DNA of 63,998 nt, filler included, from Stramenopiles sp. TOSAG23-3 (Eukaryota): the NCBI GenBank assembly GCA_900128585.1. It is 17 parts of 17 records of this genome, joined end to end, with 100 filler letters (N's around TTAATTAATTAA, not from the genome) between each part and the next. Parts side by side here need not be neighbours in the genome. Positions count along the whole stretch, not along the records: positions 34,148 to 37,829 come from LT644122.1; 16 more parts are not named here. The stretch is one strand, 5' to 3'. This document shows, piece after piece, positions 7,664 through 38,001 of the stretch. The notes beneath the pieces are model-generated. The model was not told where the DNA came from and did no database searches. It saw nothing but the letters and a program-made list of their open reading frames with translations. The position numbers and the translations under genes were made by a program. How positions within the stretch are numbered: position 1 is the first letter of the stretch; each line of letters opens with the position of its first letter.

Positions 7664-10600
7664 CTTTCAAGTTCACGATGCCCCCGACCATCACGTTGAT
7701 GCGGGAGGTAAACACGGGGCAGTCGCGGAACTCTTTGACCCATCTGCGCATTTGGTACCGAAACAAGGCCGACAGGCAAAAGCGGGCCACAAACACTACG
7801 GACACAAGGATAATGGACCAGAGGAGACGCCCCATAAAGTGTTGCAACAGGGCTTCCGGGTAATACTCCCGCTCAAGACCGTCGAGCACGGGAAAATTAT
7901 GGAACGGTTCAATCATCGCGTCGATGTCTATCGGCGGAAGGGGGGACGGGCTTGGGACCACCGGGGGCGTGATGCACGGGCACTTGGACATTGTGGCATT
8001 CTCGTTCAGGTGGGACCGGTTGTAGAACGATGGAAGGCGCCGCTCCGCAAACGGCAGCCAAGAGCAAAACCTGTCGCAATCGTTCCATTCGAACCCGTTG
8101 GTTTTGCAATAGTTCTCTTCGCATTGCGCAGCCTGCACTTGCAGCGGGGAGAAAAGGCCGGCAAGATGAAAGCCATAGCACATCCCATCGTTCAGACAGT
8201 CGATTCTGTACGGGATCACCGTGTTGTTGCACGAGAGAAGCGTTTTGTTTTCGTCCAAGATCAGCGCGTCGTACAACGAGACGTTTCCGGGAAGGGAGGT
8301 CCGGTTGCTTGCCTTCCAATATCGTTCCGCGACGTCGAACGTCGTGTTGCCGCACATCTTCCTCGTGCAGTTGACGACCGTAGTTTGGTTCGTGCTGTTA
8401 AACGTAGGAACGTAGAGGGAGTAATTCCAAACTTTTTTGTCGTACGAATCGTACCAGGACTGAACTTTGGCCAGCGTGTAATTGCCGCACATTGGGATGG
8501 ACGCATTCGGAACAGTAGCCGTTTTGTTGTGCACCACGGGCACGGGTGGGGCCGGGCTCCACCTGTCCGGGAAGGAGGAGATTTGGACGGGCAGTTCGTC
8601 AACATTGGGCCATGGCACGCGAAAAGACCCCACGTCGGGCATGTTGTCCAAGACAAACACGCCGAGCATACGCGTTGCAAATGGGCCATACGCGGTTCCG
8701 TAGTCCTGCACGAACCTCAAATGGCCCACCAAGGCAGTGCATTGCAAAGTCCACAGCACAAACCAGATGCTGACGTGGTGGTAGCGGCGGTCTTTCGTCT
8801 CGCACACGGGCGACCTTGCGCCAGCAACGCTTATGTGCGCTTTGTTGTTGGCATCGCGCAGGTCCCACGTGTCTATCATGGCCCACGCGAGGGACGCCAG
8901 GATCCGCCAGAGCAGGACGACCAAGATAACCCACCGCAGAGCGTCCGCTACCGTATCCCTCGTTTGGGCAGCCCACCACGTCACGTCGTCGTCGTTGATC
9001 CTCACGGGAACGTCCACCAGCATGACCTCGCCCTCCCTGTTGTTCACTGGCAAGCGCACACTCTCTCCCCCCATCGTGTACACCGAAGCAACGTCGTCCC
9101 AACCGTGCCTGTAATCCCCGCTTGCTGGCAACAAGTAAACCCTTAACTTGCAATTGAACGCGCCTTCTTGGTGTACGTTGTCGATGGTGCCAATGGTTTG
9201 CCACGTACCGTTAAACGAGGAGCGCCAGTTGTCGTTCGTGATGTTGTAGTCCGCGACGTTCAGAAGCTTGCCGTTGAGCGTGAGACGTGCGTACGCTTCG
9301 TTCAAATATGCATCGGGGGAAAAACAGTTTTTCCCATCGATTTGAAGCGTCATCATGCCGTCGTTGGTAAACCTCGACGGCCCGGCGTTCATTTGCAGTT
9401 GGATTTGTGGGAAGGGGTCATTTGGCCGAGAGAGGTCGCCCCCCTCTTCCAATTCTACCTGCGTGTTGTCCGCGTTTGTGGCCCCCCCTGCTACGATGTT
9501 TATCGCCGGTTGAACAAAAAAGCTGGTGCTAATTGCCGGCTCGTAGGCCGCAAGGACCGCGCTTCGGTTTGTGCCGTAGAAGTCGGTGTAGTTGTCGCAT
9601 ATCTTTGTGTAGTTAACTTGCCACGGGGGCGAGTACAGCGATTCTCGGTCGCCGCCTTGGCCGTCAAAATACGTGTCAAACGCCTTCGTGATGTTCGCCA
9701 GGTCGGCCTTGTCCTGCCTCCATCGCCACAAGGTAACGTTGTAGGTGCCGTGGAGCCACGGCATGGGCATGTCGACCGTTTGGTTCTTCGCGCACGAGGC
9801 GTTTTCGTCACACGGTGGAATGTAAATCTGCCCCCAGGTTTGCGTACAGTACTTGTGGTGCACCAGGGGCGGCCATCGAACTATGGTCAGGATAGAGTGG
9901 TTTTGGTCGGTCTTGTTCGGGCGATCCCAGTGTATGCGGAGGGTAGGCTCGGTGAAGTGGTTAAAGTAGTACCTGGTCTGATTCGGATCGTACTTGTTCC
10001 GGACCACGTTCACCCCGTTCGTGTTCACAACGCGTAGGGCGAACGACTCCCCGCACGCTTCCTCCGCTGAGATCGACCCGATCTTGTGCCCGTACCTTCC
10101 GATGGGACAAACGTTCCCGCATGCGAGTGAAAACGACGTTGCCCCCGACACGTTTCCCCACGTCCCCGCGGTGCAAAACTGCGTGCAGGACCCCTCTTCC
10201 AACCGTTGCCCGGTGACATTTCCGTACCTTCCCGCAGAACAGTTGTGCGGGCATGCCGCCACCAACGAAGTCGACCCAATGAAATTGCCAAATTTCCCAG
10301 CAGGGCACAGTTTGCAGGCCCCGGTCTCCGTCGTCTCCCCAGAAAAGTTTCCGTACTTGCCCCCGGGGCACCGCGACGGGCACGCCGCTTGCTCGGTCGT
10401 TTTTCCCGCGACCGCCCCATACTTTCCCCCCGGGCAGACGTTTGAGCACCCCACCAGCACGGCGAACGTTCCCGCCACCGTGCCCCACCGCCCCGGAGGG
10501 CAAAGGTTTGGGCATGCCTCGTCGAGGGCACGCTTCCCGACTTCGGACGCCCCGCCGTATCTTCCCGGGGCACACCGCGACGGGCACGCGTCCAGTTCTG

Positions 10601-33487: not shown

Positions 33488-34290
33488 TGTTGTGATATAT
33501 ACCAGACCAAGACGATTGCACAGTATTTGTGTCAAACGATCAGAGTGGTATTTATATCTGTCATTCATGATGGTTTTGATATTCATCCTTTGGTTTCATT
33601 TGTTTTTATATAGTACAATTCATTCAGTTATTCTCTCTATATATATAGGTTCGTTCATTCAATCGACCTCTCTTTTTTTTCTTTTTTTTCTTCTTTTTTC
33701 TTTCTTTCTCTTTTTTCTCTTTCTTTCTTCTTTCTTCTTTCTCTTTCTTTCTCTTCTTCTTCTTCGCCCAACAACAAAATAATAATAATAATATTAAATA
33801 TTATAATAAATAACACCCCACAAACACAAACAACATAGACACAACAACAAAAATAAAAACAAAAAAAAGAAGAAGAAATAATAATCTATTATTATTATTA
33901 TATCCTCCACGGTAACATGTGCTGTGTAGGTGTTAAAAATATAACAAAAACTATATATAGTTGTTTAATACTATGGGGACCTGGATGTTATGTTTGTGAT
34001 GTTTGTGATGTTTGTGATGTTTCTGATAAACTACAATTTACAATATANNNNNNNNNNNNNNNNNNNNNNNNNNNNNNNNNNNNNNNNNNNNTTAATTAAT
34101 TAANNNNNNNNNNNNNNNNNNNNNNNNNNNNNNNNNNNNNNNNNNNNGCAGTCCGTTATCATTTCACAGAAAGAAAAGTTTCTTCACAAGGGAAACGCAG
34201 AACTTTCGCAGAATACCGTTTACCTACAGTGTTTTAGAAACTTTCGCAGAACGCCGTTCCAGTTTTATAGAAGCTTTCGCGTTGCTGTTT

Positions 34291-34655
34291 GAGTTCGTTG
34301 CAAGCCGCTGACAGTTCTTTAAGTTAGTAGCTTTCGTGAAGTTTACGCAAGTCGAGTTTGTTGCAAGCCGTTGACAATTCTTTAAGTCTTCTAGTAGCTT
34401 TCGCATAGCGCCCGTGAAGTTTACGCAAGTCGAGTTCGTTGCAAGCCGCTGACAGTCCTTTAAGTTAGTAGCTTTCGCATAACGCCCGTGAAGTTTACGC
34501 AAGTCGATTTCGTTGCAACCGAAGCCGCTGACAGTTCTTTAAGTTAGTAGCTTTCGCATAAGCCCCCGTGAAGTTTGCGCAAGTCGAGTTCTTTGCAACA
34601 GAACCCTCTCCGTATCACATAGCAGCTCTAAGACCAGCCGCTGACAGTTCTTTTG
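34291..34655 (+). repeat. Degenerate tandem minisatellite, ~74-80-bp unit, about 4.5 copies
   Basis: Units start ~34291, 34351, 34429, 34503, 34583; consensus GTCGAGTTCGTTGCAAGCCGCTGACAGTTCTTTAAGTTAGTAGCTTTCGCATAGCGCCCGTGAAGTTTACGCAA. Confidence 0.93.
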
Positions 34656-34747
34656 TAGAAGTCTCGTTACCTACAGCCTTTAGAAGCTACTCCCGCGAAG
34701 GCTGCGATAAGACGTACTTTGCCGTTGGATACGCGTAGGCTTTCAAA

Positions 34748-36337
34748 ATGAAAATCATTTCCAGTGTTTTATTTGTCGCTAGCTTCGTCGGGGTTGCACT
34801 GGCGGCCGAGTGGGACTGCTCTGCTACCACCGGGGTATTTGAACGAAGTACGGACTGTACTATGACGGACGAAGTTGACGTTTCAGGAGACTTGACCGTG
34901 ACGGGGAACGAGACGGTGTACTCTACGCTGATAGCAGCGAGCTCGAAGAGGCATTTTAAAATCACCAGTGGAGCGCACACACTGAGATTAAAATGGTTGA
35001 ACATGACAGGTGGGGATATCAGTGGGAACAGCGGAGGTGACAAAAATGGCGGTTCCATTTTTGTTAACAGCGCAGCTGCCCGTTTGAACATATCTTACTG
35101 CGTATTTTTGGATAACACAGCATCATCTGGAGGTGGTATATGGAGCACAGGTACCACTATATTACATAATACCCTTGTTTCCCGGAACACAGCTACAGTT
35201 AGAGGCGGCGGGATATATCAGAAGCAGGGGTCGATCGAAATATATCGCTCAGAAATATGCAAGAATACACAAACAGATACAGATACAGGATTAAACTGTG
35301 GTGGCGGTGGTTTGGCCACAATTCTGAATGCCGTGGTGACCATACGAGGAAGTACCTTTGATCAGAACCGTGCTGTGAACAGCGGTAATGGACACCAGAT
35401 CTTCGTATACAAGCAGAGTGGTGATGTTGCCTCTGTGACTGTTGTGAATACACGGTTTGTTGTTTCCAGCAGTGGGACAAACTTTTATGTATACGACCAA
35501 GACAATTTTGGAAACAGTGGGGCTGCCGCGTACGCCAGTTTGTCACGCAAAACATGCTCCGATGCCGACCCCTGCACAGTAGCCCCGTTCACTGGAAGCT
35601 GCACTGACCGCACTGATAATGCAGATTACGGCGTTACTTGCGCGTATTCCTGCGGTTCTGGCACGTACGGCACTGTGAGTGCAAATTCGTTACCACCTGC
35701 CCCGACGTGCACCACGTGGTCATCTTGCACAGCAGGGGAGTACATTTCCTCGAACGGAACCAATATCACCGACCGTGTATGCTCGTCTTGCGGTACCGGA
35801 GAATATTCCGCGACTACCAACGAAGATTCATGCACCCCTTGGACCTCTTGCACGGCCGGAGAGTACATTTCTTCGAATGGAACCAATACCACCGACCGCG
35901 TATGCACACCTTGCGGTGCCGGAGCATATTCCGTGAGTGCCAACGAAGGTTCATGCACGCCATGGGCGAATTGCGTAGCAGGCCAAAAGATAGCCGTCAA
36001 CGGCACAAGCAGCACCGACCGCACCTGCGAAGCATGCACGACGGGGCAATTTTCTACCGCGTCCAACCAGAACACCTGCGCGAATTGGACCGTATGCAAT
36101 GCCACCACCGAAGTGGAAAGCAGCGCAGGTTCTGCCACCGCGGATAGAGTGTGCGCTTTGGCCGGCAGCCCGTCGCCATCACCGGCAGGAAGGTCGCCAT
36201 CGCCGGCAGCCAATACTTCCACCACTGCTATACCCAATAAACTGAGCGCTGCCAGTCGCTCCGGGCCAACTATATACCTCTACGGAGTATTGATGGCATC
36301 GACGTGGTTTGGAATGGAGCGTCGGTTGCGGTTTACC
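34748..36337 (+). CDS. Surface protein module 1: signal peptide, PMP-like beta-helix repeats (GG-x-I...F-x-x-N), Cys-rich 42-aa repeats, Ser/Pro linker, GPI-signal-like tail; no stop before module 2
   Basis: MKIISSVLFVASFVGVALA; NGGSIF, FLDNTASSGGGI, RGGGIY, FDQNRA; CTAGEYISSNGT repeats; SPSPSP; SAASRSG plus hydrophobic stretch. Confidence 0.8.
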
Positions 36338-37829
36338 ATGATTCGTCTCTTTTTGTTCGCTAGCTTCGTCGGGGTGGCGCTGGCAGAGGCAGAGTTTGAG
36401 TGGTCGGGAGCCATATCTACCACAGGAACAGAACCTACGGCGCGTAATACTCACACCTCGGTGGTCTATGGCGATTTTATGGTTGTGTTTGGTGGGTCGG
36501 ATGGTAGTCGCAAAAACGACCTTCACAAATTGGATTTGACAGATAATTCATGGTCTGGTGCCATATCCACCACGGGAACAGAACCTTGGGCGCGTGTTTA
36601 CCACACCTCGGTGGTTTATGGCGATTATATGTTTGTGTTTGGTGGGTTTGGTGGTGCAACCCTCAACGACCTTCACAAATTGGATTTGACAGATAATGCA
36701 TGGTCGGGTGCCATATCTACCACGGGAACAGAACCTACGGCGCGTTATGCTCACACCTCGGTGGTCTATGGCGATTTTATGTTTGTGTTTGGTGGCCTAG
36801 ATAATTCCAATACAAAACTCAACGACCTTCACAAATTGGATTTGACAGATAATTCATGGTCAGGAGCCATATCTACCACGGGAACAGAACCTACGGCACG
36901 TATTAGTACTCACACCTCGGTGGTCTATGGCGATTTTATGTTTGTGTTTGGGGGTGATGATGGTAGTCTCAAAAACGACCTTCACAAATTGGATTTGACA
37001 GATAATACATGGTCTGGTGCAATATCTACCACGGGAACAGAACCTACGGCACGTCGTTACCACACTTCGGTGGTCTATGGCGATTTTATGTTTGTGTTTG
37101 GTGGTTATGATGGTACAAACAGTCTCAACGACCTTCACAAATTAGATTTGACCAGCAATGCATGGTCTGGTGCCATATCCACCATGGGAACAGAACCTAC
37201 GACACGTTGGTGCCACACTTCGGTGGTCTATGGCGATTTTATGGTTGTGTTTGGTGGGTCCGATACAGGCCTCAACGACCTTCACAAATTGCAACTGCCA
37301 TCCTTAGCCTGCCCAGAAGGCCACTACTGCCCCGATTTATCCTCACAAAATAAAATTGCATGCCCACTGGGAACCTACAACAACTTAACGAATCAAACAG
37401 AGTGCAAAAATTGTTCCAGTGGGTTTTATTCCAATGCGACGGGTGAAACCTCATGCAAAGAATGCGAAAGCGGAAAGTACAATCAAGATAACCGTACAAC
37501 CTGCTGGCTTCATTCGGCATCGTGTTCCATGGGGTATTTTAAAGGTTCTGGGTCCACCATCAGCGATACTTGTGAAGCATGAGTAGACGGTCAGTACCAA
37601 AGCAGTGGAAGCTATACCGGTGGAAGCTGTACACCGCGGACAAATTGCACCGCCGGCCATCGCATCTCTGCCAACGGAACGAGTACCTCGAATCGTGTTT
37701 GCAGCAGTTGTATGGCTGGAAAATATTCCACCACCGCCAACGCTTTCTCTTGCACCGCGTGGACAACTTGCGTAGCGGGTCAGAAGATAACCGTCAACGG
37801 TACAGGCAGCGCAGACCGTACCTGCGAAG
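36338..37829 (+). CDS. Surface protein module 2: signal peptide, six Kelch repeats, Cys-rich stalk with an in-frame TGA at 37580-37582; 3'-truncated
   Basis: MIRLFLFASFVGVALAEA; 6x WSGAIST.GTEP..R..HTSVVYGD.M.VFGG...NDLHKL; same frame continues after TGA as VDGQYQSSGSYTGGSCTPRTNCTAG...DRTCE. Confidence 0.85.
36401..37296 (+). repeat. Six near-identical 150-156-bp coding tandem repeats (Kelch blades)
   Basis: Units begin near 36401, 36551, 36701, 36857, 37010, 37163; long stretches such as AACGACCTTCACAAATTGGATTTGACAGATAAT are identical between units. Confidence 0.97.
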
Positions 37830-37929: not shown

Positions 37930-38001
37930 TTCTTCTTCTTCTTCTTCTTCTTCTTCTTCTTCTTCTTCTTCTTCTTCTTCTTCTTCTTCTTCTTCTTCTT
38001 C
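37930..38001 (+). repeat. (TTC)n microsatellite at contig start
   Basis: Direct observation. Confidence 0.95.

Follow-up and report, generated by a model that had tools for sequence, protein, structure and literature searches.

The DNA considered here, called the window, is a stretch of 63,998 bases from Stramenopiles sp. TOSAG23-3 (GenBank assembly GCA_900128585.1). One of its contigs, at positions 34148–37829, carries a gene for a Kelch beta-propeller that begins with a signal-peptide-like segment and is followed by a cysteine-rich stalk. The window consists of 17 contigs, each about 3.7 kb long and ordered by decreasing length, which are joined by linkers of the form N44-TTAATTAATTAA-N44 (the one after the Kelch-bearing contig starts at 37830); nothing is readable across the linkers. 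All six blades of the propeller derive from one blade type with a nearly invariant scaffold, and their differences are concentrated at two spots per blade. The feature is best classed as a putative repeat receptor of a marine protist, built of Kelch blades and extracellular, with a scaffold that is constant and a face that varies.

Tandem Repeats Finder (TRF) reported a 150-nt period in 5.9 copies over 36401–37291, and a 30-nt framework taken from the first-pass annotation of this DNA was found six times with 0–2 mismatches, against an expectation of 0 in shuffled sequences. The six near-identical Kelch repeats described in that annotation are borne out by both results, with a last unit of 134 nt, and its list of variable strings at the two spots is matched exactly. 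Units were cut at the conserved Trp, and the framework was defined as 37 codons per blade (111 sites). The parts of the array are the following.

36401–37296, + strand: six Kelch blades, whole array (TRF, framework matches, Pfam, structure model)
36401–36550, + strand: blade b1, 150 nt
36551–36700, + strand: blade b2, 150 nt
36701–36856, + strand: blade b3, 156 nt
36857–37009, + strand: blade b4, 153 nt
37010–37162, + strand: blade b5, 153 nt
37163–37296, + strand: blade b6, 134 nt
36446–36451, 36596–36601, 36746–36751, 36902–36910, 37055–37060, 37208–37213, + strand: spot 1 in b1 to b6 respectively
36497–36514, 36647–36664, 36797–36820, 36956–36973, 37106–37126, 37259–37273, + strand: spot 2 in b1 to b6 respectively

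Spot 1, where the D-A loop ends, consists of the codons directly after a conserved Arg (two codons in b1) and reads NT, VY, YA, IST, RY and WC from b1 to b6. Spot 2 lies in the B-C loop after a GG doublet and reads SDGSRK, FGGATL, LDNSNTKL, DDGSLK, YDGTNSL and SDTGL respectively. Over the 15 pairs of window blades, nucleotide identity in the framework is 0.92 (0.889–0.968), the proportion of synonymous sites that differ (pS) is 0.205 and that of nonsynonymous sites (pN) is 0.043. The loops over the same pairs have a nucleotide identity of 0.43, with pN 0.57 and pS 0.55. Amino-acid identity among window blades is 0.94 in the framework and averages 0.78 (0.64–0.88) over whole blades. Most synonymous sites had been called identical at first pass; this applies to about 80% of them in the framework, and about a fifth differ between blades. 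Codon bias was rejected as the reason for framework conservation, since the synonymous codons are position-specific (Gly is written as GGA, GGT, GGC or GGG).

Membership of the array in the Kelch-repeat beta-propeller clan (PF01344/PF24681) was established at the gathering thresholds of Pfam. PF24681 matched with an E-value of 2.4e-121 and 403.5 bits (cut-off 50), Kelch_1 with 118.9 bits (cut-off 20.1), and Kelch_3, Kelch_4 and Kelch_6 likewise scored above their cut-offs; the family Beta-prop_ATRN-LZTR1 matched the head at 7.5e-48. Residues 17–330 of the Kelch gene were modelled with AlphaFold2 from a 15-sequence alignment (mean predicted local distance difference test, pLDDT, 93.7; predicted template-modelling score, pTM, 0.91). 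The predicted structure is a closed propeller of six four-stranded blades (about 24 strands), in which the N-terminal EFEW strand completes blade 6 and each unit begins with strand D. With Foldseek, the best match was the Kelch domain of LZTR1 (template-modelling score, TM, 0.88; root-mean-square deviation 2.1), and the Kelch domains of LZTR1, KLHDC3, KLHDC10 and KLHDC2 matched at TM 0.80–0.89. A phmmer search against the Protein Data Bank (PDB) agreed, with LZTR1 at an E-value of 1e-42. The Kelch propeller of the first-pass annotation is upheld by Pfam, by the predicted model and by Foldseek alike.

In the model, spot 1 corresponds to residues 21–22, just ahead of strand A (24–28), where the D-A loop ends. 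Spot 2 corresponds to residues 38–43, between strand B (31–35) and strand C (46–50). The two spots share one face because the D-A and B-C connections lie on the same side of a four-stranded antiparallel blade; this placement, which had been proposed as a check on the receptor reading and agrees with it, was deduced from blade topology and not from distances measured in the model. The available part of one source describes how the D-A and B-C loops of Keap1 build the Nrf2 pocket (PMC12314335). The variable residues are predicted to form this canonical ligand-binding face of Kelch domains.

A scan of metagenome contigs matched 22 stretches, two of which encode relatives: L001, on a 47-kb contig, with 79% identity to the window, and L002, on a 13-kb contig, with 64% identity. 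The L001 protein (640 residues) begins with a textbook signal peptide, followed by six Kelch blades, a Cys-rich region of short length, coiled-coil repeats, a transmembrane helix and a basic tail. That of L002 comprises a signal peptide, six Kelch blades, a stalk like that of the tumour necrosis factor receptor (TNFR) family as in the window, a Ser/Pro-rich linker and a hydrophobic tail. Both signal peptides are homologous to the start of the window gene and lead into the motif A-E/D-F-E-W, and both genes have upstream stops and a spacer of about 1 kb. The blade number is exactly six in each of the three genes. The contig carries the signal peptide, head and stalk of the window gene and stops short of its 3' end. 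The complete homologues bear a Kelch head with a signal peptide, a Cys-rich stalk and a transmembrane or glycosylphosphatidylinositol-like anchor. An open-ended open reading frame (ORF) beside the Kelch gene of L001, at 8077–8919, resembles by eye a copia-type retrotransposon reverse transcriptase.

The stalk and tail are shared far more widely than the head. A search with gene 1, the gene directly upstream of the Kelch gene in the window, returned many environmental proteins (among P0361–P0438) with the same stalk and tail and other heads. The heads found on the common TNFR_c6 stalk and tail are PMP/beta-helix, Kelch, RCC1, SBBP and Ephrin_rec_like, and P0375 and P0379 bear diverged Kelch heads atop the same stalk and tail. 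All five parts of this modular design (signal peptide, head, TNFR_c6, Ser/Pro-rich linker and hydrophobic tail) occur in L002. The propeller is thus one of several interchangeable heads in a modular surface-protein family. One relative of the stalk and tail, at 45% identity, is named Stramenopile-MAST_4 by its source, and the family probably belongs to marine stramenopiles, the taxon being taken from this one hit name. In the protein atlas, only generic Kelch and Ephrin_rec_like clusters were found, with scores below 0.8.

The history of the blades was followed in 18 blades from the window, L001 and L002, with 37 framework codons each. The framework pS values are the following.

Among the blades of the window gene: 0.202
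Among the blades of L001: 0.233
Between window and L001, blades of the same number: 0.230
Between window and L001, blades of different number: 0.230
Among the blades of L002: 0.50
Between window and L002: 0.53

In the 12 window and L001 blades taken together, 30 of the 111 framework sites vary, with 10 shared polymorphisms and 0 fixed differences. When gene labels were shuffled, p was 0.18 for window versus L001 and 0.002 for window versus L002, which served as the positive control. The observed blade order was no better than a third of all 720 orders, and 50 of 91 informative site pairs were incompatible in the four-gamete test. The blades of the window and L001 behave like samples taken from a single pool. 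The parts that flank the propeller differ more between these genes, with pS 0.65 in the signal peptide and 0.48 in the first 62 stalk codons (confidence interval, CI, 0.31–0.64), against 0.22 (CI 0.14–0.31) in the framework. The window stalk is 78% identical to that of L002 over 179 codons, with pN/pS 0.23. The window gene has a head like that of L001 but a stalk like that of L002; the family is therefore a mosaic. Within L002, b1 (about 2167–2320) and b4 (about 2620–2770) are nearer to the window and L001 blades (78–87% nucleotide identity) than to their own neighbours (70–80%), a closeness that hints at a re-amplified blade type or past conversion.

At the variable spots, the homologues do not share the window loops, as the first-pass annotation had expected: compared with the window blade of the same number, every one of the 12 loop spots in L001 and of the 12 in L002 is different, and the closest case, spot 2 of b4 in L001, is a single codon away. 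In the pooled window and L001 blades (12 in all), the two codons of spot 1 (R+1 and R+2) have pN values of 0.70 and 0.63, GG+1 has one of 0.62 and GG+4 one of 0.63. These values of 0.62–0.70 are about three times the framework pS. Tyr occupies 13 of 54 hypervariable positions and is strongly enriched. Spot 2 is partly structured, in that two of the six window blades have an x-D-G-S-x-K loop with shared codons; with the codons GAT GGT AGT, this loop is found in 5 of the 18 blades. The remaining spot 2 loops are mostly longer and, in the window and L001, end in Leu. Whether the blades are exchanged between members or stem from a single burst, loop diversity seems to be favoured, because the loops either outpaced synonymous sites or resisted the homogenisation of the intervening 45- and 81-nt stretches.

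A simpler account would be a plain recent six-fold amplification of one blade, in which the loops are merely the least constrained parts and diversifying selection, exchange and a recognition role are not involved. This is considered fairly unlikely. The pattern of two variable spots is not unique and recurs in unrelated highly repetitive Kelch arrays: entropy peaks at the same two spots in P0110, P0228, P0247 and P0106, as this account would predict. In P0110, a bacterial-looking protein with a sorting-domain tail and about 13 near-identical blades, the variable residues are the two after Arg and those after GG. Continual amplification of propellers, Kelch included, from single blades is also described in the available part of a survey by Pereira and Lupas (PMC9218822), and loop pN/pS in the window is about 1. 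Neutral loops would not, however, be expected to change threefold faster than framework synonymous sites (pN 0.62–0.70 versus pS 0.22), and plain amplification does not readily account for 10 shared polymorphisms without a fixed difference despite a stalk pS of 0.48, for the 50 of 91 site pairs that fail the four-gamete test, or for the strong enrichment of Tyr at variable positions.

The Kelch gene lies in an ORF of 944 codons at 34748–37582 (+ strand), which contains two genes' worth of protein. The features of the contig around the array are the following.

34335–34598, + strand: tandem repeat of a 78-nt unit (3.4 copies), upstream of gene 1 and separate from the propeller (TRF)
34748–36313, + strand: gene 1 (ORF; Pfam TNFR_c6 at 3.1e-17; weak Chlam_PMP match)
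36338–36385, + strand: Kelch gene start, signal-peptide-like (MIRLFLFASFVGVALA), sharing its frame with gene 1
37297–37579, + strand: first part of the Cys-rich stalk (Ephrin_rec_like/TNFR-like; Pfam)
37580–37582, + strand: in-frame TGA, where L002 has TGT (Cys) at the same position
37583–37829, + strand: TNFR-like Cys repeats, the frame continuing past the TGA to the contig end, where the gene is cut off

Gene 1 encodes, in order, a signal peptide, a PMP-like beta-helix head, four TNFR_c6 repeats, a Ser/Pro-rich linker and a hydrophobic tail ending in WFGM, and its relatives are P0361–P0365. In P0375, the homologous tail ends exactly in ...STWFGM. In the window, no stop follows the WFGM of gene 1; GAG and six further codons lead to the ATG at 36338, and the frame is open through the spacer region at 36314–36337. 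The signal-peptide-like segment of the Kelch gene is related to the signal peptide of gene 1. The secreted head on a Cys-rich stalk proposed at first pass is supported by the complete homologues L001 and L002; in the window copy its start at 36338 is in frame with an upstream ORF of 530 codons, with no intervening stop. Alignments of contigs from two public sequencing runs, X3 and X7, stop at 36357, and a third run, X1, shows joints there. The junction may have arisen by loss of the stop between two tandem genes, by a real rearrangement or as a chimera formed during amplification. At the 78-nt repeat (34335–34598), X1 contigs skip 126–252 nt, which suggests copy-number variants or collapsed assembly paths.

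The in-frame TGA at 37580 is covered by an X1 unitig with no differences. TGA as a sense codon (Euplotes-type) was rejected, because it closes 9 of 19 long ORFs in the window, including that of a WD40 gene, where it stands right after the last repeat; comparison of the longest ORFs under other genetic codes gave no systematic gain. An Rfam search of the contig with E-values up to 1 returned no match of any kind, selenocysteine insertion sequence (SECIS) elements included, the 3' untranslated region lying beyond the contig end. Truncation, decay or a sequencing error may affect the window copy; that it encodes a selenoprotein is less likely.

It is unlikely that the window copy is a decaying or silent gene, that is, a pseudogene or donor cassette in which a 5'-displaced Kelch gene abuts the 3' end of gene 1 and carries a premature TGA, and which would serve at most as raw material for exchange with expressed paralogues. 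Such decay would fit a TGA in the place of a conserved Cys codon, the mere 21 nt without a stop that separate WFGM, where gene 1 should end, from the ATG at 36338, compared with an upstream spacer of about 1 kb in L001 and L002, and the break at 36357 in the contig alignments of other runs; disrupted highly repetitive propellers are moreover common, often through in-frame stops, according to the available part of the survey cited above (PMC9218822). The frame, however, is open and conserved on both sides of the TGA, with the 78% identity to L002 and the pN/pS of 0.23 given above, and a single stop with no frameshift could also reflect selenocysteine or an error of sequencing or amplification.

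Read support for the contig was sought in public runs. Of the sampled words of contig 34148–37829, 94% are present in X1, a run of 3 million letters, which is probably the source of the contig; a second run of the same study contains 46% of the contig words, and marine metagenomes and poly-A metatranscriptomes contain 7–18%. Unitigs of X1 match the Kelch array with 0 differences and link loop to loop, and one of them spans the junction of gene 1 and the Kelch gene (36311–36477) at the depth of the neighbouring sequence. Blade order could be checked solely against these short unitigs. Runs X2, X3 and X7 gave no cover over the Kelch array at 90% likeness or more, which is not evidence of absence or of non-expression. 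The longest exact repeat within the array is 43 nt, and ordinary reads can therefore bridge it.

These data bear on a further alternative, in which the array or the junction with gene 1 is a chimera of paralogues produced by short-read assembly or whole-genome amplification. The window is built of contigs of only about 3.7 kb, the run that contains most of the contig words is tiny, X1 has several joints in and around the contig with 10 unitigs that fit two places, and the array is covered by short unitigs only. An artefact is nevertheless very unlikely, given the short exact repeats, the X1 unitigs that bridge the loops and the junction without differences at their neighbours' depth, and the same six-blade design in two independently assembled homologues on contigs of 47 and 13 kb. 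Elsewhere in the window, the contigs carry long intron-free eukaryotic ORFs, for example for CFAP74, a poly(A)-binding protein, a kinesin and the WD40 protein, and the contig that follows the Kelch gene starts with a perfect (TTC)24 microsatellite at 37930–38001.

Among known systems, the window feature is most readily compared with the repeats of fungal NOD-like receptors (NLRs). In the available part of the work of Dyrka et al. (PMC4986451), the WD40, ANK and TPR repeats of these proteins are described as highly internally conserved (HIC), defined as more than 85% identity between repeats over at least 100 residues, with repeats exchanged both inside and among paralogues and a binding face under positive selection. 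The window array resembles these repeats (WD40 in Podospora HNWD/het-e/het-d; ANK; TPR) in its near-identical DNA repeats with few hypervariable codons on the binding face (PMC4986451; PMC12222747, each as available in part). Its hypervariable positions are likewise confined, by model and topology, to the predicted ligand-binding face, and the lack of differentiation between window and L001, with the four-gamete failures, may mirror the mixing of repeats within and between members. It differs in that its whole-blade identity of 0.78 falls short of the 85% set in the available text of PMC4986451, and in that six blades were found in all three genes, with no polymorphism in repeat number. The HIC repeats are WD40, ANK or TPR and fungal, whereas the window protein is Kelch, extracellular, membrane-anchored and from a protist. 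The NLR architecture (NACHT/NB-ARC plus a death or effector domain) is absent, Pfam having found only Kelch, TNFR_c6 and Ephrin_rec_like domains. The fungal HIC repeats are a better model for the window feature than the variable lymphocyte receptors (VLRs) or transcription activator-like effectors (TALEs) that the first-pass annotation had invoked.

VLRs are solenoids of leucine-rich repeats (LRRs) assembled somatically from cassettes, and TALE repeats read one DNA base each. Both have a constant repeat scaffold with a few variable residues that set specificity, and in this they are like the window protein. A strict system of either kind, with combinatorial or somatic assembly of cassettes or with one ligand unit read per blade, is nonetheless highly improbable here, the resemblance being a formal one. 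In the contig and in the 4-kb flanks of L001 and L002 there are no cassette arrays, the closed six-bladed ring is predicted to present one composite face and is not an open, polymer-reading solenoid, and all three genes have exactly six blades. The LRR modules and cassette-flanked germ-line gene of VLRs are likewise absent; in a Pfam search for LRRs in the window, only LRR_4 appeared, at an E-value of 0.008 and below the cut-off. Assembly of the VLR kind and somatic shuffling, which had been suggested earlier, are not supported.

Highly repetitive propellers in general, among which the Kelch superfamily is listed, share with the window array the near-identical blades derived from one blade; the part of the survey that was available includes neither loop hypervariability, nor a Kelch head on a secreted Cys-rich stalk, nor stramenopile examples (PMC9218822). 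The Kelch substrate receptors LZTR1, KLHDC2, KLHDC3, KLHDC10, KLHL20 and Keap1 have the same six-bladed fold (TM 0.80–0.89), but they are cytosolic ubiquitin-ligase adaptors with diverged blades and BTB/BACK/Elongin-binding parts, and their identity to the window head is 24–31%. Propellers of the attractin/MEGF8 type are likewise extracellular and sit on membrane proteins. These proteins have diverged blades together with CUB, EGF, PSI and C-type lectin domains. Pfam scans of the window gene and its homologues found no CUB, EGF, PSI or C-type lectin domain.

The nearest relatives of the blade type in protein databases are P0231 (64%) and P0247 (55%). Both have the same blade type (NDLH-LDL-WSG-GT-PTAR-HTSV-YG-M-VFGG), near-identical blades and the same two variable spots. 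They differ from the window gene in having neither signal peptide nor Cys-rich stalk; their N-terminal parts match the PHROG annotation 'virion structural protein' and Laminin_G_3. From these matches, the same Kelch scaffold seems to serve in virus particles too. The non-Kelch parts of P0231, P0247, P0102, P0281 and P0111 match PHROG virion structural and tail families, Laminin_G_3 and CBM_5_12. Several of these five have near-identical blades that vary at the two spots described. The five may be phage receptor-binding proteins, and a transfer of blades between viruses and protists is possible. No relative was found when viral contigs were scanned with P0231 and with the window head, and tblastn on 50,697 phage records yielded just 10 Kelch matches, all distant (23–31% identity). 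In the literature searched, which did not extend to subscription journals and supplements, no paper was found linking Kelch with high internal conservation, nor was such a Kelch head found described on a protist surface protein. One candidate article on Kelch repeats, hypervariability and diversifying selection (PMC2938197) was set aside, as its subject is unrelated.

Taken as a whole, the feature is probably the membrane-distal, highly repetitive Kelch head of a modular surface protein from a marine protist, likely a MAST-like stramenopile, in which the scaffold is kept uniform and the loops of the binding face are kept different. The propeller would have been re-amplified from a single blade, and its uniform scaffold would stem from recent amplification, from blade exchange or gene conversion within and between members, or from both. 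The loop differences would be upheld by selection for binding specificity, and the outcome would be a set of receptors or adhesins encoded in the germ line, constant in scaffold and variable in binding face, for which a prey surface, a glycan, a virus or a mating partner are candidate ligands. A bolder extension, drawn by analogy with the NLRs of Podospora, is that a bacterivorous stramenopile shuffles or converts blades among paralogues, possibly with defective copies as donors, and so keeps a germ-line repertoire for prey, viruses or mates; this is doubtful.

Several points weigh against the reading of a uniform scaffold with selected loops. The ratio of nonsynonymous to synonymous change (dN/dS) within loops, which the first-pass annotation had put forward as a check, is about 1 (0.97–1.21); synonymous and nonsynonymous sites are both saturated there, and the ratio is therefore no evidence for or against positive selection. 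The case for such selection depends solely on the comparison with framework pS, which conversion would itself depress. One burst of amplification before the genes split would likewise give equidistant blades, the confidence intervals of stalk and framework pS almost touch, and the comparisons draw on 12–18 blades. Exchange between the window gene and L001, which were recovered from different samples, can be deduced only indirectly. The family is small so far, with three members bearing this head and nothing above 64% identity in protein searches. The window copy has an in-frame TGA and is separated from gene 1 by no stop, and it may be defective. Cover of the array comes from X1 alone, and neither expression nor blade order has independent support.

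The molecular basis of the recognition of prey, virus or self by heterotrophic marine flagellates is largely unknown. The Kelch head described here offers a candidate receptor family that can be cloned and tested, in which the binding face changes between close relatives and the scaffold is fixed even at synonymous sites. The HIC type of receptor evolution has so far been documented in the WD40, ANK and TPR repeats of cytosolic fungal NLRs and in bacterial propellers. With the present family, this type would also take in Kelch repeats and extracellular protist proteins. Designed symmetric Kelch proteins (SAKe) were among the PDB matches of the window head in the phmmer search, and a near-symmetric natural Kelch scaffold that tolerates loop variation may interest protein designers as well.

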